From IMG/VR virus record IMGVR_UViG_2740892422_000012: a stretch of DNA of 32,590 nucleotides; one strand, given 5' to 3'. The translations under genes were made by a program, and so were the position numbers. Of the stretch, positions 7,536 through 32,590 are shown piece after piece. The notes under the pieces were generated by a model, which had not been told where the DNA came from, ran no database searches, and saw nothing but the letters and a program-made list of their open reading frames with translations. The DNA comes from a virus. Its lineage: Duplodnaviria; Heunggongvirae; Uroviricota; Caudoviricetes. Positions within the stretch are counted from its first letter, which is position 1; each line of letters starts with the position of its first letter.

Positions 7536-8495
7536 ATGAAAATTTGTATCGACGACGGCTCCACCAACATCAAGCTGGCATGGACTGAGAACGGCGAACG
7601 CCGCAACGCCATCAGCCCGAACAGCTTCAAGTCGGAATGGTCTGCGCCGTTCGGTGGCTCGCAGCCTGCGAACTACATGCTTGATGGCGTGCGCTATGGT
7701 TTTGATCCGGTCAGCGATCGCTTTGTCCAGACGACCGACACGCAATACCAGTACAGCGATGTGAATGTCATTGCCATTCATCACGCGCTGGTCAAATCAG
7801 GCATCACGCCTCAGGAGGTGGATGTGGTTGTCACCCTGCCACTGAGCGAGTATTTCGACACAAACGCACAGCCAGACATGGCCAACATCAACCGCAAAAA
7901 AGCGAACGTTATGCGCCCGGTGGAGTACCAGAACGGCGAAGCATTCACTATCCGTAACGTGCGGGTTATGCCTGAATCCATTCCGGCTGGTTTTAAGGCA
8001 CTGGCTGACATGAGTCCGTTTGAATCCCTGCTGATTGTGGATTTGGGCGGAACCACGCTGGATGTGGCAAAGGTTCAGGGGCAACTGGCAGGTATCAGCC
8101 AGGTGTTTTGCGATCCACACGTAGGCGTTTCTCTGATGGCTGATGCCGTGCTGTCGGTGATGGCCACTAACGGTATGCGTACCAGTCACCACATCGCCAA
8201 TACCATTATTGAGCACCGTCACGATGAAGCCTGGCTACGCCAGCACATTCACAATGACGCGCATTACAACAGCCTGATGGCGGTTATTCGTGAAAAGGAG
8301 GAAACACTGAAACAACGCGTGATCCGCGCGCTGGCGGGTTTTTCGGGTTACGGGCGGGTGATGGTTGTAGGTGGAGGAGCGGAGATTGTGGCACCCGCTA
8401 TCCGCGAAGCCTGCGGAGTTAATGCGACTTTCATCGCGGACGGGGTGCCACAGTTTGCTCTGGTTAATGGGCTGTACGCAATGGACAAGGAGTAA
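7536..8495 (+). CDS. parM: ParM/StbA-family actin-like segregation ATPase
   Basis: Motifs IDDGSTNIKL, PNSFK, YSDVNVIAIHHAL, VDVVVTLPL, IVDLGGTTLD, VMVVGGGAEI align with recalled plasmid R1 ParM (StbA); AAGGAAAA RBS. Confidence 0.85.
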   Translation: MKICIDDGSTNIKLAWTENGERRNAISPNSFKSEWSAPFGGSQPANYMLDGVRYGFDPVSDRFVQTTDTQYQYSDVNVIAIHHALVKSGITPQEVDVVVTLPLSEYFDTNAQPDMANINRKKANVMRPVEYQNGEAFTIRNVRVMPESIPAGFKALADMSPFESLLIVDLGGTTLDVAKVQGQLAGISQVFCDPHVGVSLMADAVLSVMATNGMRTSHHIANTIIEHRHDEAWLRQHIHNDAHYNSLMAVIREKEETLKQRVIRALAGFSGYGRVMVVGGGAEIVAPAIREACGVNATFIADGVPQFALVNGLYAMDKE

Positions 8496-22679: not shown

Positions 22680-23856
22680 CGGCAAACCCACCGCAGATTA
22701 CGAGCGCATTCTGGCTGATAACGGCATGCCGGTAACAGAAGAACAGGCGCGCGCTGAATTTGAAGCCATTGTCAAAGACGAAGGGCTTATCACCAACACA
22801 TCCCGCATGTCGCCGTTCTGGCGACTGATTACAGCTATCGCCACAAAACCCGTGATGTGGCTGAAAGATGCGCTGGTTAATGTGGTGATGAAAAACCTGT
22901 TTCTGGCCGATGCCAGCGGTGTATTCGTTGATGTTTTTGCCTGGGCGGTAAACCTGCAACGCAAGGCCGCCACGCACGCAGCCGGCGTGATTCGTTTCAC
23001 CAAGAACGACATTGATCGCGCAGTTACCGTGCCGGCCGGTACGCAGATTCAGACAGAACGCATTAACGGCGTGATTTATACGCTGACCGTTGTCAGGGAT
23101 ACCGTTATTCCGGCAGGAACACTCAGCATGAACATCGATGTTTCTGCGGAACAGGCCGGAGCCGGCTTTAACCTTGCGCCGGGATATTACCGCATCCTTC
23201 CGGTGGCGATTGATGGTATTGCCGGCGTTGAGAACGATGAAAACTGGCTGACAACACCGGGGGCCAACGAAGAAAGCGATGACGAGCTGCGTGATCGTGT
23301 TCGCAATCAGTTTAACCTTGCCGGCGCTTATCACACCGATGCCGTTTACCGGGGATTAATTGCCGGCGTTGCCGGTATCAGTGCCGACCGCATCTATTTT
23401 CTGCATGACGCACCACGCGGCCCCGGCACAGCAAATGCTTACATTCTGCTGGATACCGGCATCGCATCCGAACCGTTCGTTGATGCAGTAAACGCATTCA
23501 TTAACGATGAAGGTCATCACGGACACGGTGATGATCTGCGCTGTTTTTCCATGCCTGAAACACGCCACACCCTGACCGTGACACTCTGGTTATATGCAAC
23601 GCTGAACCTCAGCGATGAGGAAATTCAGACGTTATTGCGCAATGTGGAAAATCTGGTTCGCTGTGCATTTCGAGAAAACAGCGATTATGACGTTCAGAAA
23701 ACATGGCCGTATAGCCGTTTCAGCATGTCCAGACTGGGCGAAGAGATCCACCAGGTATTTCCACAGGTGGAGTCGGTTACATTTTCTCTTCCGGATATTC
23801 TCAGTGATCTGGCTGTTCCTCGTCTGGAATCCCTTACTGTGGAGGTGAGCGCGTGA
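22672..23856 (+). CDS. Baseplate J-like protein
   Basis: 394 aa from ATG 22672 (track start 22669 is TTG); position and size fit the baseplate J/gp47 family, followed by an I-like gene and tail fibers. Confidence 0.65.
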   Translation: MINGKPTADYERILADNGMPVTEEQARAEFEAIVKDEGLITNTSRMSPFWRLITAIATKPVMWLKDALVNVVMKNLFLADASGVFVDVFAWAVNLQRKAATHAAGVIRFTKNDIDRAVTVPAGTQIQTERINGVIYTLTVVRDTVIPAGTLSMNIDVSAEQAGAGFNLAPGYYRILPVAIDGIAGVENDENWLTTPGANEESDDELRDRVRNQFNLAGAYHTDAVYRGLIAGVAGISADRIYFLHDAPRGPGTANAYILLDTGIASEPFVDAVNAFINDEGHHGHGDDLRCFSMPETRHTLTVTLWLYATLNLSDEEIQTLLRNVENLVRCAFRENSDYDVQKTWPYSRFSMSRLGEEIHQVFPQVESVTFSLPDILSDLAVPRLESLTVEVSA

Positions 23857-24488
23857 AACTTCCGGAGATCCCTGAATTTCCGCTCCCCACCTGGATGAAT
23901 AAAGGCGAGCCGTTAACGCTGGCACATTCATCGCATCGCTACTGGGAAAAGGTATACAGCTGGCTGACGTGGCCACTACAGCAGATTGATGTCGACACCT
24001 GCGCAGAGCCTTTACTTAACCTGCTGGCTTATCAGCGCAATATCACCCGATTTAAAGGTGAGCCGGTTTCGTTATTCCGCTTAAGAGTGAAACACGCGTT
24101 TATTAACGCTCAGGACTCTGGCGAACGCGCCGGCTTCGAACGCATCTTTAAGCGCCTTGGCGTGGGAGACGTTAAAACACTGGAACGGCAACTGCAGCAT
24201 GACTGGGACGTTATTTTACTGCGCATTAATGACACCCAGTTAAGTGAAAACAACGCGCTGATGATGCAGCTCGTGCGCCAGTATGGTCGTACCTGCAGGC
24301 GCTATTTCTTTCAGGTAATCAATACAACCACTGCCCGGCTGACAGCCGGCACATTTGATGGCCATTACAGGTATCACACAGCAGAAGCAACGGTGAGAAA
24401 GGACACCATCTGGTTAACCGCTTCGCTACAGGCAGGACATTACGGCCTGTCCGTGGAACATTACACATTACAGGCAGATGAAGCATGA
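23853..24488 (+). CDS. Tail protein I-like (baseplate)
   Basis: GTG start at 23853 preceded by GGAGGTG and overlapping upstream stop; 211 aa between J-like and tail fiber genes. Confidence 0.55.
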   Translation: MKLPEIPEFPLPTWMNKGEPLTLAHSSHRYWEKVYSWLTWPLQQIDVDTCAEPLLNLLAYQRNITRFKGEPVSLFRLRVKHAFINAQDSGERAGFERIFKRLGVGDVKTLERQLQHDWDVILLRINDTQLSENNALMMQLVRQYGRTCRRYFFQVINTTTARLTAGTFDGHYRYHTAEATVRKDTIWLTASLQAGHYGLSVEHYTLQADEA

Positions 24489-26239
24489 GCACGATTATTA
24501 CTGAACAGTACGAACACTGGTGCGCAAATCAGATCATCAGTGGAAAACCCGCGCGCCCGGATACATTTGTTTTTGCATATATTCCGGGACAGGATGAATC
24601 CGCAGAGATCCCCCGCGATGAGATACTCCCTGATGAATCCATGATTCAGTATCGTGCGCCGGTCACCCAGTACGGCCTCCTGTCGCCGAATGCGACCGCG
24701 TTTTCCATCATTCTGGACACGACAGTCGGCGACTTCGAATACAACTGGATCGGTCTGCTGAACGAAGAAAGCGGCGTGCTCTGCATGATTGCACACACAC
24801 CTCGTCAGCAAAAAATTAAAACAGCAAACGGCGTACAGGGAAACAACCTGATCCGCACATTTTCCATGGAGTTTGACGGCGCTGCAGCAGCAATGCATAT
24901 CGATGTCAGCGCTGATGTCTGGCAGATTGATTTCACTGCCCGTCTTGCGGGAATGGATGAAGCCCGCCGGCTGCTGGCGTTTGATCACTACGGTGAAGCC
25001 GCTTTTCTGGGGGATGGTTTTCAGGTCAGCTATCAGGACGGTACCGCCACTGTTGCCGCCGGCGTGGGTTATGTGGGAGGTCTGCGCGTCAGCCTGCGCG
25101 AACCTTACAGCCTGCCGGCTGCTGTCGGGGATACCCTCTGGATTGATGCAAGCTGGCAGGGATTTGTTACCGGCGAATGGAGCACCGTTTTTACGTTCTG
25201 CGCTCGCAAGGAACACGCGCCCTATACAGACGGGAACGGTTTCCAACACTTTGTCGCGCCACTTGCAAAACTGACAGCAGGTGGCCCACAGGATTTACGT
25301 CCACAGACGCCCGACGAAGAGCAAAGCAACGCGCTGGCAGAACACGAAAAATCCCGCAGACACCCGGATGCCACGCTGACCGAAAAAGGCTTTGCGCAGT
25401 ACAGCAACGCCACCGACAGCGATGCAGAAGACCGCGCCGCCACGTCAAAAGCGGTAAAAATCGCAATGGATAACGCCAACGCACGTCTTGCGAAAAATCG
25501 CAACGGCAGCGACATTCCCAATAAACCGCTGTTTATTGAAAACGTCGGACTGAAACCCACCGTTGATAAAGCTGAAAGCGCCGTTCAACGCGCTGGCGAC
25601 ACCATGACCGGGGAGCTGAAAATCCGTGGTGTTAATGCACTGAGGATTTTCAACGAAGTCTTTGGCCTGATTTTCCGTCGTTCGGAAGAGTGCCTGCACC
25701 TTATCCCTACCAGTGAAGGTCAGGGCGAGAATGGCGATATTGGTCCACTTCGACCGTTCACCATAAATCTGCGGACGGGTGAAATATCCATGTCGCATAA
25801 AGTGTCTGTTGGCGGCGGCTCTCAGGTCAATGGTGCGCTGGGTATCGGCGTTCAGAACGCGCTGGGTGGAAACTCAATTGCTTTCGGGGATAACGATACC
25901 GGCCTGAAACAGAATGGTGACGGCCTGCTGGATGTTTATGCCAATGGTCAGCACGTATTCCGTTTTCAGAATGGCGCGTTACAAAGTAACCGGGCAGTGA
26001 ATGTTTCAGGTCGGGTAACACCGTCAGACTACGGAAACTTTGATGCCCGCTATCAAACCAAAACAGGCGGTGTGCAGGATGTGCGTCTGGGCAGTGCCAT
26101 TGGTATTGGGCGTGGCGGGAATGCACCATCAGGTCACCTTATCAGCGGTCTTGATGGTGGTGAAAGTATGGACTGGGCCAATGCCCGCCCGGTGCAGGTT
26201 CTGATTAATGGCGTCTGGCGGAATGTAGCGAGTTTGTAA
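24485..26239 (+). CDS. Tail fiber protein (P2 gpH-like C-terminal region)
   Basis: Segments AEHEKSRRHPDATLTEKGFAQYSNATDSDAEDRAATSKAV, ALGGNSIAFGDNDTGLKQNGDGLLDVYANGQHVFRFQNG and C-terminal VLINGVWRNVASL match recalled P2 H tail fiber motifs. Confidence 0.85.
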   Translation: MSTIITEQYEHWCANQIISGKPARPDTFVFAYIPGQDESAEIPRDEILPDESMIQYRAPVTQYGLLSPNATAFSIILDTTVGDFEYNWIGLLNEESGVLCMIAHTPRQQKIKTANGVQGNNLIRTFSMEFDGAAAAMHIDVSADVWQIDFTARLAGMDEARRLLAFDHYGEAAFLGDGFQVSYQDGTATVAAGVGYVGGLRVSLREPYSLPAAVGDTLWIDASWQGFVTGEWSTVFTFCARKEHAPYTDGNGFQHFVAPLAKLTAGGPQDLRPQTPDEEQSNALAEHEKSRRHPDATLTEKGFAQYSNATDSDAEDRAATSKAVKIAMDNANARLAKNRNGSDIPNKPLFIENVGLKPTVDKAESAVQRAGDTMTGELKIRGVNALRIFNEVFGLIFRRSEECLHLIPTSEGQGENGDIGPLRPFTINLRTGEISMSHKVSVGGGSQVNGALGIGVQNALGGNSIAFGDNDTGLKQNGDGLLDVYANGQHVFRFQNGALQSNRAVNVSGRVTPSDYGNFDARYQTKTGGVQDVRLGSAIGIGRGGNAPSGHLISGLDGGESMDWANARPVQVLINGVWRNVASL

Positions 26240-26241
26240 TT

Positions 26242-26796
26242 ATGATGCACTTAAAAAATATTACGGCACAAAATCCCAAAACAATTGAGCAATACCAGCT
26301 GGCGCGACAGCATAAATTTTTATTGTGGCTGTTCTCCGATGATGGTCAGGAATGGCACGAAGCCCAGGAAAAATTTCAGCCAGACACTCTGAAAGTTATT
26401 TATGTTGAAACTGGCGAAGTGGTCTGGGTCGGAAAAGACATCACCTCAATCTGCCCGGAAAATAAAAGCGTGATTGAGCTACCGGATATTACCGCCAATC
26501 GTCGCATCGAGGCGTCGGGTTACTGGTTCTACCGCAATGATGAATTTGTTTTTAATTACAAATTAAAAGCAGAAGACGAGCGTGATGCCCTGTTAAAACA
26601 GATCAGCATCATGACCAGCGAGTGGGAAAAAGACCTGCTGCTGGGACTAATCAGCGACGAAGACAGGGAAAAACTGAAAGCCTGCCGCATTTATGCGAAA
26701 GCACTACAGCAAATGACTTTCAGCCAGGTTACAGATAAAGCATCGTATGCTGCGATTGTATGGCCAGAATTACCGCAAAACATTAGCGAGAATTAA
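26242..26796 (+). CDS. Tail fiber assembly chaperone (P2 gpG-like)
   Basis: N-terminus MMHLKNITAQNPKTIEQYQLARQ...FQPDTLKVIY parallels recalled P2 G (MQHLKNIKSGNPKTKEQYQL...FQPDTIKIVY); AT-rich. Confidence 0.8.
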   Translation: MMHLKNITAQNPKTIEQYQLARQHKFLLWLFSDDGQEWHEAQEKFQPDTLKVIYVETGEVVWVGKDITSICPENKSVIELPDITANRRIEASGYWFYRNDEFVFNYKLKAEDERDALLKQISIMTSEWEKDLLLGLISDEDREKLKACRIYAKALQQMTFSQVTDKASYAAIVWPELPQNISEN

Positions 26797-26802
26797 GAAG
26801 TA

Positions 26803-28098
26803 ATGAGCGCACTGTTAACGAAAGCATTTGAAAAGTGGGTTGCCGAATGCACAGCCAGTAATTTACCTGCACGTCCTGACGCCATTATTTTTGCTCTGAT
26901 GGAGCGGGAACCAACGCGCGAAGATACCACCGTTCCGGAAGAAAAAATCACATATGCTGTAAATGAACTGACCTACGGCCAGTTAAGCCCGAACAATATT
27001 GTGTGTAGCGCGGTTGTTCCTGATGACTGTGCATTCAGCTATGACTGGATTTGTCTCATCCATCAGACCAGCGGAACACTGTGCGGCGTAATAAAAACCC
27101 CTGTCCGTCAGAAACATGCTGGCGAGTCACTGGTCAGGAATTTCACGATTACTTATCAGGGCGTGGCTCAGGCTGCGCAAATTACCGTTCCTCCACAGAG
27201 CTGGCAGGTGGATATTACCCCTGAGCTGAAATCAATGCTGAAAGCTCCTAACCGACTGTCAGAAATTGCAGCAGAGGGGGAAGAGGCGCAACAGGAATCC
27301 CGAGACAATCTGGGGTTGAAAGGTGCTGCTTTGCTTGATGTTCAGAGCGATATCTACGACCGCACCGCAGGCCGTCTGGCGTTACCCGGTGCATTCGGAT
27401 ACGGGCATTTATTCTCTTCGTCGGAAGTCGTGTATTTCAGCGCGCAAAATGGCCCCGCCGAATTTCTGAAGTGGGTATTCGAGGTCACACCAGGGCGTTA
27501 TGCGGTAACGCAGTACGGTGGTTCTGGTAATTGGTATAACCCCATCATTGCTTATGATGGGGGGGATGTATATTTCAGGGGGCTTGTAGACATAGATATA
27601 CGACACGGAATTGGTTCAGACGGTATTGAATCAGAAACTGGCCGGTGGATAACTTTTCATGGCGATGCCGAATACACTGGCTGGCATGGTGAGGGGCCGG
27701 CTAAGTATCAGGTATTGGTTACAAAATCAATGTCTTCGGCGACACTTCCCGGGGCATGGTCGCGGCTATTCTGGTCACGCGACCGACTGAGACAACTGTT
27801 ATGTGCAGGAGATACTACATCATGGCGTGCTCCGCAACCGGGTAGCCTGGTTCTTGCCGCATACCTGCCAGATAGCGGCAGCAGTGATGTCACATTACTT
27901 CGCACACAATCTGTGCCGGGATCAAGACTCCGGCAGGTGGTCTTCGAAGCTGAGTATCGCGATTCAGGATTTAGTGCCGCTGCCAGGTCATTTGTCTACG
28001 GAAGTACCCTGCCTGGCACGTATCTCGCTTTATCAGGAGGCCCGAATGTCACGTTTTATAATCGGGGGCTGGTTTCTTTGTTTGTGAGGGTTTCATGA
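26803..28098 (+). CDS. Second tail fiber protein with divergent C-terminal domain
   Basis: N-terminal ~150 aa is a paralog of the first fiber N-terminus (PARPDAIIFAL... vs PARPDTFVFAY...; GQLSPNN...SYDWICLIHQTSGTLCGVIKTP vs GLLSPNA...EYNWIGLLNEESGVLCMIAHTP); C-terminal half unrelated. Confidence 0.7.
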   Translation: MSALLTKAFEKWVAECTASNLPARPDAIIFALMEREPTREDTTVPEEKITYAVNELTYGQLSPNNIVCSAVVPDDCAFSYDWICLIHQTSGTLCGVIKTPVRQKHAGESLVRNFTITYQGVAQAAQITVPPQSWQVDITPELKSMLKAPNRLSEIAAEGEEAQQESRDNLGLKGAALLDVQSDIYDRTAGRLALPGAFGYGHLFSSSEVVYFSAQNGPAEFLKWVFEVTPGRYAVTQYGGSGNWYNPIIAYDGGDVYFRGLVDIDIRHGIGSDGIESETGRWITFHGDAEYTGWHGEGPAKYQVLVTKSMSSATLPGAWSRLFWSRDRLRQLLCAGDTTSWRAPQPGSLVLAAYLPDSGSSDVTLLRTQSVPGSRLRQVVFEAEYRDSGFSAAARSFVYGSTLPGTYLALSGGPNVTFYNRGLVSLFVRVS

Positions 28099-28670
28099 TG
28101 CAAATTAAAAAAATCACCAGTCCCCGCTACACCGAGTCCGGTGCAATTGACTGCGAGGTGCTTTTTGAAGGGATGGAAGAAGCCATTCCGTACACAGCCA
28201 CACCAGAAGACACAGCAACAACAGGCCAGCAAATCTGGCAGGAGCTGCAAAGCGGCAAATGGGGCGAGATTGCCCCGTTCACCGCATCACCTGAACTTAT
28301 CGCAGCAGCAAAAGACGCCAAAAAACGAGAAATTGAGGCGTGGCGCACAGAACAGGAGGCGCAGCCGTTCACGTTCGAATGGAACGGTCGTACCTGGAAC
28401 GCTGGCCCCGACTCAATGGCCCGTCTTTATCCGGTAGTAATGGCGGCGAAATCTGACACGGCGCGGGACGTTATGGCGTGGGGTGACGCCGATAATCAAC
28501 AGGTGAAACTGTCAATACCGGAACTGGAAGAACTGGCGACAGCAATGGCGCAGGCACAGGTCGATCGCAATGACGAGATTTATCGCCGTCAGCGACAGAT
28601 GAAGGACGTGCTGGATAGCCTTAATAATCTTGCCGACATCCGCGCTTTTCAGGCTGGAGAGTCAGAATGA
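28095..28670 (+). CDS. Putative tail fiber chaperone/assembly protein for the second fiber
   Basis: 191-aa acidic ORF coupled (ATGA) to the second fiber gene. Function inferred from position. Confidence 0.4.
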   Translation: MMQIKKITSPRYTESGAIDCEVLFEGMEEAIPYTATPEDTATTGQQIWQELQSGKWGEIAPFTASPELIAAAKDAKKREIEAWRTEQEAQPFTFEWNGRTWNAGPDSMARLYPVVMAAKSDTARDVMAWGDADNQQVKLSIPELEELATAMAQAQVDRNDEIYRRQRQMKDVLDSLNNLADIRAFQAGESE

Positions 28671-29380
28671 AATGGGAAAAGGCAATTCTGCGCCCGTCAG
28701 CCATGAACATTAAATGCTCTGTGGTTTGCCTGCATCCATGGTCAGAAAATACCGGAAACATCAAACCATCGGGGCGTTATCTCAGCCCCGAAAATGCTGT
28801 ATCTGCACTTTTACCCTATCTGAAAGAAAACACAGAAAAGGACATTGTGGCGCTGTTATTTTGCGCTCCTTCTGCTGGCGAGTTTTTATCACTCGCCAGG
28901 CAATTTTCAGGCGCATTTCCGTTGCCGGAGGTGGGACGAATGTCCCGCATGATCTCCAGTCAGCTTTCACTGGCCATCAGCAGAATGCAAATCCCCGCCA
29001 GACCGGCAACATCACTTCCGGAACCGATAATGCTGTCGACACAGACCACTCGCAGCATGTCGCTGGCGGCAACCATTGCACAGGCAGCCACTCCTGCCGC
29101 CACATCACCGGAAACATTGTCATCATCACTGCATCAGTTCATGAATGCGAGAGATAAAGCTCTACAGGAAATCGCTGATCAGCAGGCTGCACTCCGGCAA
29201 AAATTTTGCCCGGTGTGGCGCTTTTGCTACAAGGGAGCCCTCAGCCAGGCCGCAGTGCTGATACAAAAAAACATCCCACACCCTGAGTGGGTTTTTACAG
29301 CTGTGATGCTGTTCGTCGGCGATGATCTCTCATCACTAAGGGAGGCACTACATGACCCAGATGATTGTCCTTGCGCTTGA
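28667..29380 (+). CDS. Hypothetical protein (237 aa) with S/T/A-rich central region
   Basis: ORF coupled to the upstream gene (ATGA), overlaps the next gene by 29 nt; no recognisable family. Confidence 0.4.
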   Translation: MKWEKAILRPSAMNIKCSVVCLHPWSENTGNIKPSGRYLSPENAVSALLPYLKENTEKDIVALLFCAPSAGEFLSLARQFSGAFPLPEVGRMSRMISSQLSLAISRMQIPARPATSLPEPIMLSTQTTRSMSLAATIAQAATPAATSPETLSSSLHQFMNARDKALQEIADQQAALRQKFCPVWRFCYKGALSQAAVLIQKNIPHPEWVFTAVMLFVGDDLSSLREALHDPDDCPCA

Positions 29381-29927
29381 CGGGGAAGCCATTCTGCTGC
29401 GCAACATCACCGTCAGCGCCACCATGCAACTACCGGACAAAGATATGTCCGGACAGTCAACCAGCACCACGAGCGCCCAGCAGGGAAGCAAGGCTAAAGA
29501 GCTGCGCGTGTCGGGGGTTATTGATTTTAACGATGAAGCTATTCTGACCCGTATTTTTCAGCTTGCGGAGGCAACAGAAAGCAATGGCGCGAAAAAAACA
29601 TATCGCATTGCTAACGCTACCGCGAAGGCAATCAATATGCGACAGGGGGTATTTTCTGGTGGCATTGATGCCACGGAACAACAGGGAAAAATGCACTGGC
29701 AGGTCACCTTTACTCTCAGGGAAAAATTAAGCGTGCCAGAGAAAGCGTCTGCACGTAGCGGTTCGCAGAAAACCATCGCCAGACAGCAGACCCAGAACGG
29801 TAGCGAACAGGCACCAGACAAAGGCATGAATACGCAAAGTTCGTTCTGGAAAAAAATCAATGATGCCGTTGGCTCTGGTCTGGATGCTGTTGGCATCGGG
29901 AGCGTGAAAGAGGAAGGGAAAACATGA
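29352..29927 (+). CDS. Putative tail protein (gpU-like position)
   Basis: 191-aa ORF with GGGAGG RBS immediately upstream of the hub/spike gene. Confidence 0.4.
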   Translation: MTQMIVLALDGEAILLRNITVSATMQLPDKDMSGQSTSTTSAQQGSKAKELRVSGVIDFNDEAILTRIFQLAEATESNGAKKTYRIANATAKAINMRQGVFSGGIDATEQQGKMHWQVTFTLREKLSVPEKASARSGSQKTIARQQTQNGSEQAPDKGMNTQSSFWKKINDAVGSGLDAVGIGSVKEEGKT

Positions 29928-31621
29928 AATTGATACAACGCTGCATGATTAATGGCGAACGGGTGGAAATTGCCGATGTAAGCCTTGTTCTCACCCTGAA
30001 TGCCGCCGGTCGTGGCTTCATTTCTGTTAACAATCTGTCATCCGAACACAGCCTTGCCGGCGCAATGGTGCAAATTGATCTCGGTCGTGACGGTGAAGCA
30101 TGGCGCTATTTCTCCGGCTACGTTGAACGCGACCAACCCGCCGAAAATGGTTCGCGCCGCCTTTTTATCCGTGAAGCAGCTGCTGTGCTGGATTTTGATT
30201 TCCCCTGCTCCATGCAACACCCGACGTTGCGGGAGGTGTTAGATAATCTGGGACGACAAAGCGGCATCGTTTTTATCACCCCGGACGCGGATTATGTCAA
30301 CACACCAACCCCCTACATCACCCACAGCGGCAGCGGAACGCAGCTACTCAGCCAGCTGGGGCGCGCATTCAGTATCAGCGATTACGTCTGGCACCCAATG
30401 CCGGACGGTTCTGTATTTGTGGGAAGCGCCGCTGATTCACGATTTGCCAGTATTACGATGCCGGATATTCCGCAACAGTACGCTCTCGGGCAAAGCGGCG
30501 GAAACAGCATCGACATCATGTTCATGGAAACTGTGCGACCGGGCGTGAATCTTCCCGCCGGGCGTATTACCCGCGTAGCCCTCAACAACGAGAAAATGAC
30601 TCTGACGTGGGAGCGCCTTACCGTCACGGGCAGCCCTGTCTCCAAATCACCATTACGCAGACAGATGGAAACACAGTTCCCGGAACTGGCCAGCGGCACA
30701 CTACACACCAGGCTGGCGCGCGTCATTGCACCAACGGAATCCGCCACCCTGGGCGATGTGGCCGACAGCTTCCGTCCACGCTACGCCGTGGACGTGCAAC
30801 TGCTCGATGAGGACGGCAACGATAAAAGCGATACGCCTGTTTACCCGGCAGTCCCACTCCCCGTCCCGATGGCTGGTAGCGAGGCGGGATGTTTTGCCTA
30901 CCCGCCGGCAGGCACCATCGTGGAAATATCTAACATTGAAGGGCGCCCGGATAAACCTGTTATCAGGCAAATCTTACCCGCTGGCCATAACCTGCCTGAT
31001 GTAAAGCCCGGCGAACAACTGCAGCAACAGCGCGCAGAAGTGTTTCAGCGCGTCACGACTGACGGAAGCTGGCACAGAGAAACAGACCAGCAAATCAGGG
31101 AGCAGTCAGCCACCCGCACAATTAACAGTGATGCAGAAGAGCGCACCACAACAACCAGAACAACCACAGTACGGGCAAACGACATAACCAGTGTTCTGGG
31201 AACCAGCAAGCTGGCGGCAGGACAAATAGAGCACCTTACTACCGGCCATTACGCGATCGCAGCCAGCGAGCATATCCAGATGGTAGCGCAGGATTTGCTG
31301 ACTAAACTCAAAGGGGCAATATCCACAATTGAGCAGGACCTGACTGAAAACGTGGGAGGCCGCAGAACATGCCGGGCGGACGGCGGTCTGAAGTTTACAG
31401 CCCCGACAGTATTTATTGGTCGCGGTGGCTCACGGGAAAAATCCGAACTTAATCTGCTGACGTTGTTGATTGATATTCTGGATCTGATTCAATTGCTGGC
31501 CACGCACACTGCAAACCATACCCACAGCAACACTGGCGCACCAATGAACAGCGGCGAACTTGCCGCAGATGCCCTGCAGGCTACGAGCCTGCGCGAAAAA
31601 TACGGGGACCTTATTGCCTGA
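29924..31621 (+). CDS. Baseplate hub / central spike protein (gpD/gpV-like)
   Basis: 565 aa; C-terminus HTANHTHSNTGAPMNSGELAA resembles the histidine-rich spike apex recalled for P2 gpV; last gene of the late operon, followed by a strong terminator. Confidence 0.55.
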   Translation: MKLIQRCMINGERVEIADVSLVLTLNAAGRGFISVNNLSSEHSLAGAMVQIDLGRDGEAWRYFSGYVERDQPAENGSRRLFIREAAAVLDFDFPCSMQHPTLREVLDNLGRQSGIVFITPDADYVNTPTPYITHSGSGTQLLSQLGRAFSISDYVWHPMPDGSVFVGSAADSRFASITMPDIPQQYALGQSGGNSIDIMFMETVRPGVNLPAGRITRVALNNEKMTLTWERLTVTGSPVSKSPLRRQMETQFPELASGTLHTRLARVIAPTESATLGDVADSFRPRYAVDVQLLDEDGNDKSDTPVYPAVPLPVPMAGSEAGCFAYPPAGTIVEISNIEGRPDKPVIRQILPAGHNLPDVKPGEQLQQQRAEVFQRVTTDGSWHRETDQQIREQSATRTINSDAEERTTTTRTTTVRANDITSVLGTSKLAAGQIEHLTTGHYAIAASEHIQMVAQDLLTKLKGAISTIEQDLTENVGGRRTCRADGGLKFTAPTVFIGRGGSREKSELNLLTLLIDILDLIQLLATHTANHTHSNTGAPMNSGELAADALQATSLREKYGDLIA

Positions 31622-31685: not shown

Positions 31686-31744
31686 CATATCTGCCACCTG
31701 ATTAATGCGTTCTGCGCGCCATTCCGGCGCTGTATGCGCACACC

Positions 31745-31783
31745 GCGTAAACGGTGTGACGTAAAGCGTGAGGTGACGTAAAC
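31745..31783 (+). repeat. Three direct repeats of (G/A)CGTAAA(C/G), possible recombinase arm-type sites
   Basis: gcgtaaac, gacgtaaag, gacgtaaac spaced 13 and 17 bp apart, between the last phage gene and the hok locus. Confidence 0.25.
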
Positions 31784-32162
31784 CGCGCTACCCCCTCCAA
31801 CCCGCGGGTTTTGTGTCGAAACAGTTTTTCAGTTTTCTGCCGTGCAAAACTGACCGCCAGCCCGCGCAGCAACTGAGGAAAAAGCGAAGATCTGAAATTT
31901 CACGCTTTGAAATTTTTTGCAGTTTTCAGAGGGATTTTTACGATCTCATGAATGGCAGGAGAAAGAAAACAGGCTGATATTAAAAGAGTTTTCATACTTT
32001 ACGTGGGACAAGACGCGATCGCGAAAGGATCGCATCAAAAAATCTTCAAACAACGAAGCCAGACGCGGCGCGGCCTGCGTAAGATTGAGAGTCAAAATTA
32101 AACTGAAAAAAGGATCAATACCGCGCCTCGATCGCACATGACGATCTACGCAGCAACAGGAC

Positions 32163-32185
32163 AAAAAAACCGGCGCGAACGCCGG
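32163..32185 (-). terminator. Minus-strand intrinsic terminator
   Basis: Plus strand reads A7 then ccggcg-cgaa-cgccgg; on the minus strand this is a 6-bp GC stem followed by a run of seven U. Confidence 0.45.
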
Positions 32186-32420
32186 CGGAAGCATGTATCA
32201 AATGCGTGACTGAATAATGTCTACGGTCGGGAATTTTATATCAAAAGGCTGACAGGCCTCAACGGATTGAAACAAGGGAAAAAACCAGGCTAGAATTCGC
32301 GCGGGTGCCTTTCGGCTGATGGTCGGAGGGAATACCCGAAGGCCGGATGTGGAAAGGCCCCGGAAAACATTTCTGTTTAACCGAGGCCCTAACATATCTA
32401 CCTTAAGCAAGTGATAGGTT

Positions 32421-32449
32421 AGCGCCTCTCCAACAAAGGAGCAAGCGCT
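32421..32449 (+). promoter_or_regulatory. Hairpin sequestering the hok Shine-Dalgarno sequence
   Basis: agcgc/gcgct and ctcc/ggag pairings place the GGAG Shine-Dalgarno (32438..32441) in a stem directly upstream of the hok ATG. Confidence 0.4.
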
Positions 32450-32590
32450 ATGTCGCAAAAATCGCTTACGGCCATCACGTTCTGCGTGACGGTAATCCTC
32501 ATCATCTGGATGCTGCACGGCTCGCTGTGTGAAATACGGATGAGCTTCTGGGGAGCGGAGTTTGCGGCGTTCTTACAGTGTAAACAGTAA
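32450..32590 (+). CDS. hok: Hok/Gef-family type I toxin (small membrane peptide)
   Basis: Not in the ORF track. 46-aa product MSQKSLTAITFCVTVILIIWMLHGSLCEIRMSFWGAEFAAFLQCKQ has one transmembrane helix and the SLCEIR ... AAFL pattern of Hok-family toxins (closest by eye to HokA). Stop is the last codon of the window. Confidence 0.8.
   Translation: MSQKSLTAITFCVTVILIIWMLHGSLCEIRMSFWGAEFAAFLQCKQ

Follow-up and report, generated by a model that had tools for sequence, protein, structure and literature searches.

The IMG/VR record IMGVR_UViG_2740892422_000012 (Caudoviricetes; 32,590 nucleotides [nt], hereafter, the window) encodes two different tail fibres in direct succession between the baseplate gene gpI and the next conserved tail gene (coordinates in Table 1). 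Each fibre is followed by its own chaperone-like gene, and the two proteins start with paralogous anchor domains of about 150 amino acids (aa). We consider it probable that this module represents two different fibres with their own chaperones that are displayed together on the particle, and that the second anchor provides an old slot that receives exchangeable cassettes. Based on its gene content, the element carrying the module is an Escherichia coli P2/HP1-like prophage with the HP1-type layout of Peduoviridae.

Pairwise comparison of the two fibres (BLASTP) yielded one significant alignment, which was N-terminal (63/177 identical residues, 36%, E=5e-26), and no significant similarity outside this region. 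Both N-termini belong to PF12571 (formerly DUF3751; ‘tail-collar fibre N-terminal’), which according to published descriptions attaches the R2 pyocin and P2 H fibres to the baseplate (PMC7882524, PMC4684702). An earlier annotation, made from the letters of the DNA alone (hereafter, the sequence-only reading), had proposed that two consecutive fibres share a homologous N-terminal ~150 aa, differ in their C-terminal parts, and are each followed by a chaperone-like gene; the alignment and the domains of the two downstream proteins (PF02413 and PF14301) agree with all three statements. Its description of the region as tandemly duplicated pairs holds for the anchors, which are paralogous, but not for the chaperones, which proved to be unrelated when compared with each other (E 0.15). 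By these comparisons, only the ~150-aa anchor is paralogous, and the fibre-chaperone pairs were not duplicated as pairs. Both pairs are on the plus strand with complete genes, and the ORF (open reading frame) coordinates show tight packing, with start and stop codons that overlap or lie 2–6 nt apart. The gpI gene is located directly 5' of fibre 1. Stop and start codons overlap between gpI and fibre 1, between fibre 2 and the DUF4376 chaperone gene (28095–28098), and between the latter and the conserved tail gene that comes next.

Nucleotide comparisons placed recombination breakpoints at positions 25479, 25536, and 25565, corresponding to aa 332–361 of fibre 1, just past the PF03406 repeat, and at 27224–27236, corresponding to aa 140–145 of fibre 2, where the anchor ends. 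Further breakpoints are located at ~27400 (fibre 2 aa ~199) and at the borders of the DUF4376 gene. Two segments are shared with phiP27 (a Stx2e phage): the fibre 1 distal part with its tail fibre assembly protein (TAP; 25536–26765, 94% nucleotide identity) and the fibre 2 distal part with the DUF4376 gene (27233–28594, 83% nucleotide identity), with unrelated sequence between them. Among near-identical backbones, fibre 2 ranges from 285 to 842 aa in length on a 69–97% identical anchor, and it is accompanied by the DUF4376 protein, by no chaperone, or by a further ORF of 352 aa. Among backbone relatives, the identity of the fibre 1 distal part is 36–97%, and the fibre 1 anchor is 94–100% identical across relatives with gpI identity of at least 90%. 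As read from the aligned sequences, these results show that recombination moves each distal part together with its chaperone, at domain boundaries. The exchange partners appear to be unrelated phages, such as those with phiP27-like and Rac/lambdoid side-tail-fibre genes.

The gpI protein was used to collect 28 IMG/VR loci, onto which all module parts were mapped. Fibre 1, TAP, and fibre 2 were present in every locus with gpI identity of at least 90% whose contig reaches the slot, and likewise in the Escherichia albertii reference genome. Because all of these sampled relatives have the two-fibre layout, we consider it old in this lineage. Among more distant loci, L031–L034 (gpI 54–79%) encode one fibre and one TAP, and L030 (77%) encodes two fibres. 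In complete E. coli genomes, anchor 1 was found in 51/5426 and anchor 2 in 49/5426; anchor 1 was 95–100% identical at the nucleotide level in 45 of the 51 genomes, and anchor 2 was spread over 70–100%. Anchor-2-type domains came solely from contigs belonging to this lineage. When 1.84 billion representatives were scanned exhaustively with HMMER, anchor 2 emerged as a discrete group of 19 (58–94% identity, no indels; full protein lengths of 75 to 775 aa), and all other PF12571 domains in the scan had at most 40% identity to anchor 2 and ~12 extra residues. A profile search of genome contigs with the anchor-2 alignment, in which cross-genus sampling was poor, returned a single locus, that of E. 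albertii. When anchor 2 was searched (tblastn) against 50,697 deposited phage records, 70 records gave exactly one match each, with at most 32% identity; within the sensitivity of this search, neither the two-anchor arrangement nor an anchor-2-type domain exists in any isolated phage. In addition, a search of open-access papers did not reveal any P2/HP1-like phage with two DUF3751-anchored fibres.

The anchor alignment separates into two clean clades, of which anchor 2 is without two insertions, and W12, PARPD, W134-Q135, and other residues are invariant in both. The PARPD motif is common to anchor 1, anchor 2, and the fibres of the single-fibre loci L031–L034, and is missing in the one-fibre phages ESSI-2, SI7, and HP1. 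In a neighbor-joining distance tree, anchor 2 is the long-branch sister of the anchor-1 clade, inside ESSI-2, SI7, and HP1. Because anchor 2 has the PARPD motif of the lineage and branches beside anchor 1, the data are most simply explained by an old duplication of the anchor within the lineage, after which the copy diverged rapidly, and not by the import of a foreign pair.

The alternative that a one-fibre phage recently acquired the whole second pair (fibre 2 and DUF4376 protein) by horizontal transfer was also considered, given that canonical relatives have one fibre, that the fibre 2 distal part and its chaperone are 83–85% identical to phiP27 L56 and L57, and that the guanine-cytosine (GC) content is lowered around 26150–27050. 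We regard this scenario as unlikely. The two-fibre layout occurs in all of the sampled relatives described above, including E. albertii, and anchor 2 was found in this lineage only and has its PARPD motif in common with anchor 1. Moreover, phiP27 L56 carries a different anchor (PF08400), and therefore the second pair cannot have arrived as one block. The compositional argument also fails, because the AT-rich tract (~26150–27050) covers the pair-1 chaperone together with the beginning of fibre 2 and not the second pair: GC content is 44.0% in the TAP gene (the AT-richest of the module), 48.9% in the fibre 2 anchor, 52.2% in the fibre 2 distal part, and 53.8% in the DUF4376 gene, compared to a window mean of 52.8 ± 4.0% (550-nt windows). 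The block version of recent acquisition is thus largely refuted. Accordingly, the AT-rich region that the sequence-only reading had placed at 26240–28100 is real but differs in extent, and its proposal of a dual host-range module acquired by recombination is retained for the presence of two fibres and the exchange of their distal cassettes, but not for the two-fibre layout as a recent block.

In the proposed function, the module would be the host-recognition unit of an integrated P2/HP1-like temperate myovirus, with two trimeric receptor-binding fibres encoded in one late operon. Each fibre would dock to the gpJ/gpI baseplate wedge through its DUF3751/PF12571 domain of ~145–160 aa, which would be joined to the distal part via the PF03406 repeat in fibre 1 or the ‘NLGLK’ linker in fibre 2. 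The Mu U/P2 G-type Tfa would fold the distal part of fibre 1, and the DUF4376 protein that of fibre 2. Given the translational coupling of the genes and the lack of an invertase or other switch, both fibres would probably be made in every lytic cycle and displayed together; if both are made and both dock via DUF3751 anchors, two receptor specificities would result. The slot created by anchor 2 would then take in cassettes, each a distal part plus its chaperone, at domain boundaries. Constitutive display of two receptor specificities is the likely function of this arrangement, and we infer a host-range role for the module.

Several points weigh against co-display from an old second anchor. The two anchors might compete for the same six sites on the six-fold P2/HP1-type baseplate. 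With near-identical gpI and gpJ, anchor 2 varies much more (70–100% nucleotide identity) than anchor 1 (95–100%), which is unexpected if both anchors contact the same invariant surface, and this variability is explained neither by two sets of sites nor by competition for six sites. Furthermore, the neighbor-joining tree is without bootstrap support, with anchor 2 on a long branch.

Some of these observations would also fit a phage with only one functional fibre, the other being vestigial or not incorporated, or with competition leaving one fibre type per particle: the homologous anchors may be directed to one set of six docking sites, evolution is faster in anchor 2, and fibre 2 is just 285–350 aa long in some relatives. 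However, the two ORFs are intact wherever a locus spans them, the invariant residues W12, PARPD, and W134-Q135 are maintained in both anchor clades, and the cognate chaperone is kept with fibre 2 in many relatives. The in-frame cassette turnover of fibre 2 tips is, in addition, a signature of selection on a working receptor-binding protein. A single functional fibre therefore seems improbable to us. Under the preferred reading of two co-displayed fibres, how the baseplate accommodates them is a more tentative matter: it is possible, but somewhat doubtful, that the second anchor lets a minimal baseplate carry two fibre sets, either by means of an additional docking surface or by stochastic mixed occupancy. 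If true, mixed occupancy of six sites would make each burst a collection of particles with different fibre mixtures, the module would widen host range without a switch, as an alternative to Mu-type inversion, and slot 2 would be a dedicated landing pad for foreign receptor-binding cassettes.

The identity of the second gene was evaluated from its distal part and its neighbor. The last 260–315 residues of fibre 2 recur with 80–95% identity as the C-terminus of side-tail-fibre proteins that carry PF08400 (‘prophage tail fibre N-terminal’) and PF03406 repeats, and the distal part is 83% identical to the C-terminus of phiP27 L56 and 79% identical to Rac-SA53 tail3. Its best PHROG match is a tail-fibre family (phrog_2636). 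In structure-based comparisons, an AlphaFold2 model of the distal domain (predicted local distance difference test [pLDDT] 70) matched predicted phage tail fibres in BFVD (E 7e-7), and the structural matches of fibre 2 are phage fibres and receptor-binding proteins; the full-length model was poor (pLDDT 54), and Foldseek against PDB gave no match below E 0.5. Sequence searches of PDB gave no meaningful match for fibre 2, the DUF4376 protein, or ORF34. The protein encoded directly 3' of fibre 2 contains PF14301 (aa 71–175) and is 85% identical to phiP27 L57. In phiP27, Rac-SA53, and backbone relatives, the DUF4376 protein is found together with this distal part of fibre 2, and in relatives with unrelated fibre 2 tips the chaperone is absent or changed. 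Experiments have established that DUF4376 proteins are required as fibre chaperones in Alteromonas phage V22/A5 and Campylobacter CJIE1 prophages (PMC7289586, PMC10579305, PMC7882524); by analogy with these homologues in other phages, the DUF4376 protein of the window would be the folding chaperone of fibre 2.

These results bear on the possibility that fibre 2 belongs to the baseplate or serves as an adaptor (a ‘tail collar’ piece). Fibre 2 is short, with ~285 aa past the anchor and essentially no shaft, and the Pfam scan found no domain in it beyond PF12571. Tailocins have short ‘a-type’ proteins that consist of DUF3751 only (PMC4684702), and in two relatives (L014 and L035) a version of 285 aa precedes a separate ORF of 352 aa. 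Nevertheless, the C-terminal domain also ends bona fide side-tail-fibre proteins, fibre 2 has a dedicated chaperone and is hypervariable between near-identical prophages, and the structural matches point to fibres, making a baseplate component very unlikely. Because the C-terminus occurs on side-tail-fibre proteins, its PHROG match is a tail-fibre family, and a DUF4376 protein lies behind it, the view that the second gene encodes a fibre and not a baseplate protein, as the sequence-only reading had assumed, is supported.

In L014 (6659–8599) and L035 (10001–10858 and downstream), which include the E. albertii reference genome, the 285-aa fibre 2 consists of the anchor plus ~140 aa, and the 352-aa ORF, without a Pfam match, replaces the DUF4376 chaperone. 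This arrangement may represent an adaptor and a separate receptor-binding protein. Many NCBI records name one family of fibre C-terminal domains ‘shikimate transporter’ (L005 4762–6699; P0137–P0192), for example the fibre 2 tip of strain A36, which is ~31% identical to that of the window; the name looks like a propagated misannotation.

Pair 1 has homologues of solved structure in phage Mu. Fibre 1 matches Mu S (PDB 5yvq_A) at E 1e-39, with the best-matched stretch at aa 294–382, and TAP matches Mu U in the solved S-U complex (PDB 5yvq_B, E 2e-33) and carries the Caudo_TAP domain (PF02413, E 5.8e-20). The extreme tip of fibre 1 and the pair-1 chaperone resemble Mu S'/U', with 42% identity between TAP and Mu U' (E 1e-51). 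The distal part of fibre 1 is 94% identical (nucleotide) and 95% identical (amino acid) to phiP27 L54. The sequence-only reading had called the first pair P2 H/G-like and the second different, which is consistent with a Mu S/U-type pair followed by a pair with a DUF4376-type chaperone. Judged by its anchor, shaft repeat, and Tfa, pair 1 is P2 H/G-like and, more precisely, Mu S/U-like.

Regarding the two chaperone types, the profile phrog_11571 matches the N-half of TAP (aa 27–103) and the C-half of the DUF4376 protein (aa 70–188). Because this profile matches both, natural chimeras of the two chaperone types probably exist. Both chaperone genes begin with MMxxKxIT. The NCBIfam search returned no names for the module proteins.

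The resemblance to Mu U'/S' seen in the pair-1 chaperone and at the extreme tip of fibre 1 could suggest an alternating host-range switch (Mu G, P1 C, or Min type) or another programmed rearrangement, a possibility that we give almost no weight given that both pairs are on the same strand with no annotated serine invertase, no crossover consensus, and no long inverted repeats. No invertase was annotated by RefSeq across the whole identical prophage or found among the scanned window ORFs, the Gin/Hin/Cin/Pin crossover consensus (gix/hix/cix-like) had 0 matches at up to 3 mismatches, and the repeat scan found no long inverted repeats, only short ones at chance level. We therefore rejected an invertible host-range segment, in line with the sequence-only reading, which had excluded one from the single-strand layout and the missing invertase. 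Promoter-like sites were not in excess within the module.

Table 1 Features of the dual-fibre module and its borders in the window (nucleotide positions, plus strand).
Feature	Position	Strand	Evidence
gpI (P2 I-like baseplate protein)	23853..24488	+	PF09684 Tail_P2_I E 7e-5; phrog_1228 tail protein E 9e-82
Fibre 1 gene, 584 aa	24485-26239	+	ORF coordinates
Fibre 1 anchor domain, aa 1-160, PF12571/DUF3751	24485..24964	+	PF12571 aa 3-157, E 2.5e-29
Fibre 1 conserved proximal shaft	24965..25535	+	Includes PF03406 fibre repeat; Mu S homology
PF03406 repeat of fibre 1, aa 297-338	25373-25498	+	E 6e-16
Fibre 1 exchangeable distal part, predicted receptor-binding	25536..26239	+	phrog_6859 tail fibre E 3e-115
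Tail fibre assembly protein 1 (Mu U/U', P2 G, lambda Tfa family), 184 aa	26242..26796	+	PF02413
Fibre 2 gene, 431 aa	26803-28098	+	ORF coordinates
Fibre 2 anchor, aa 1-145, paralogous PF12571, lineage-specific subtype	26803..27237	+	PF12571 aa 3-142, E 8e-13
Fibre 2 linker (NRLSEIAAEGEEAQQESRDNLGLK, aa 150-173) and exchangeable distal domain	27238..28098	+	phrog_2636 tail fibre E 6.5e-76
Putative DUF4376 chaperone for fibre 2, 191 aa	28095..28670	+	PF14301 E 8e-16; phrog_1141 E 4e-87
Conserved HP1 orf33-position protein (hyp237)	28667..29380	+	phrog_1677/31292; right-hand boundary of variable module

Compared to known systems, the order fibre, Tfa, fibre, DUF4376 protein is the same in phiP27 (L54-L55-L56-L57) and in Rac-SA53 (tail1-4), and the amino-acid identities of phiP27 to the window are 95% (fibre 1 distal part), 90% (Tfa), 83% (fibre 2 distal part), and 85% (DUF4376 protein). 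However, L54 and L56 show no N-terminal similarity to each other, whereas the window anchors are paralogous PF12571 domains; L54 has no Pfam anchor match, and L56 and Rac-SA53 tail3 carry PF08400. These fibres also sit on a Mu-like (phiP27) or lambdoid tail, whereas those of the window belong to an HP1-type baseplate. Haemophilus HP1 (orf27-35), Cronobacter ESSI-2, and Salmonella SI7 have the same gene order as the window (tape measure, DUF2590, J, I, fibre, Tfa, orf33-35) with one PF12571 fibre and one assembly protein in the slot. The window lineage differs by a second PF12571 fibre, usually with a DUF4376 chaperone, that is placed before orf33. The G segment of Mu (S/U and S'/U') resembles the window in that two alternative receptor specificities appear to be encoded side by side, but in Mu one pair is expressed at a time via Gin-mediated inversion, whereas the window has no invertase and no crossover site.

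Phages with two different fibres at the same time are known, including Shigella phage Sf14 (PMC11821841) and the Wifcevirus and Gordonclarkvirinae members in BASEL (PMC11990801). These phages have contractile tails and simple baseplates with two fibre sets that do not alternate. They belong to other phage families, and co-display in the window is predicted from its genes. In R-type pyocins and other tailocins, the DUF3751 fibres have an anchor of ~150–164 aa that is separable from the specificity-determining C-terminus and its chaperone (PMC7882524, PMC4684702), and the fibre 2 breakpoints (aa 140–145) coincide with the fusion point that engineers use for heterologous receptor-binding proteins in tailocins. 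Those are laboratory swaps in single-fibre particles, whereas the exchange described here is observed in natural populations. Given that two different fibres and swappable tips are known in phages, this module is a modest variation; what is new compared to the phiP27-type dual cassettes and the one-fibre HP1-like phages is the paralogous second DUF3751 anchor. Provided that both fibres are displayed, a simple contractile-tail baseplate would have been made bivalent by duplicating only the ~150-aa anchor. The natural breakpoints (fibre 1 aa 332–361, fibre 2 aa 140–145) mark graft points for foreign receptor-binding modules with their chaperones, which would be useful for engineering dual-specificity P2-like phages and R-type tailocins. 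The module is also relevant to host-range prediction for prophages of pig enterotoxigenic E. coli (ETEC) and Shiga toxin-producing E. coli strains.

Pig ETEC strains (e.g., ETEC1730) carry a prophage with 100% identity to the window, and, based on its RefSeq annotation, the whole element runs from an integrase beside pheA/pheL to a Com/methyltransferase region beside raiA. The prophage encodes a tyrosine integrase, the Cox and ogr/Delta regulators, a GPA replication protein, and a P2-family portal, terminase, scaffold, and capsid. Its tail genes follow the order tape measure, DUF2590, J, I, fibres, orf33-like protein, HP1_ORF34, and a 565-aa baseplate protein. The PDB search with gpJ gave marginal matches only, the best (E 0.008) to a baseplate wedge protein. 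The HP1 orf35-like 565-aa protein (29924–31621) has a weak VgrG-like stretch (TIGR01646, aa 264–364, E 2e-4, far below the cut-off), which suggests a hub or spike protein.

The orf33-position protein follows the fibre module in all relatives, and HP1, ESSI-2, and SI7 have a gene at the same place. Its identity (79–99%) co-varies with that of the fibre 2 anchor (69–97%) across otherwise near-identical backbones, which probably reflects hitch-hiking with the variable zone, with co-adaptation as a further possibility. The idea that this protein (hyp237) is a fibre-2-specific adaptor was rejected, given that single-fibre phages have the gene at the same position; it was dropped because linkage to the variable zone explains the co-variation.

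Outside the tail region, positions 7536–8495 encode a ParM actin-like segregation ATPase (PF06406 and PF21523, E 2e-82), and the next small ORF a partition/stability protein; these are plasmid-maintenance genes, which are unusual in a chromosomally integrated P2-type phage. At its right end (~31700–32590 and beyond; L001 15966–17676), the prophage encodes a Hok/Gef toxin and a TM2-domain protein, together with a Com-family regulator and a DNA methyltransferase that occupy the Mu com/mom position before raiA/bamD.

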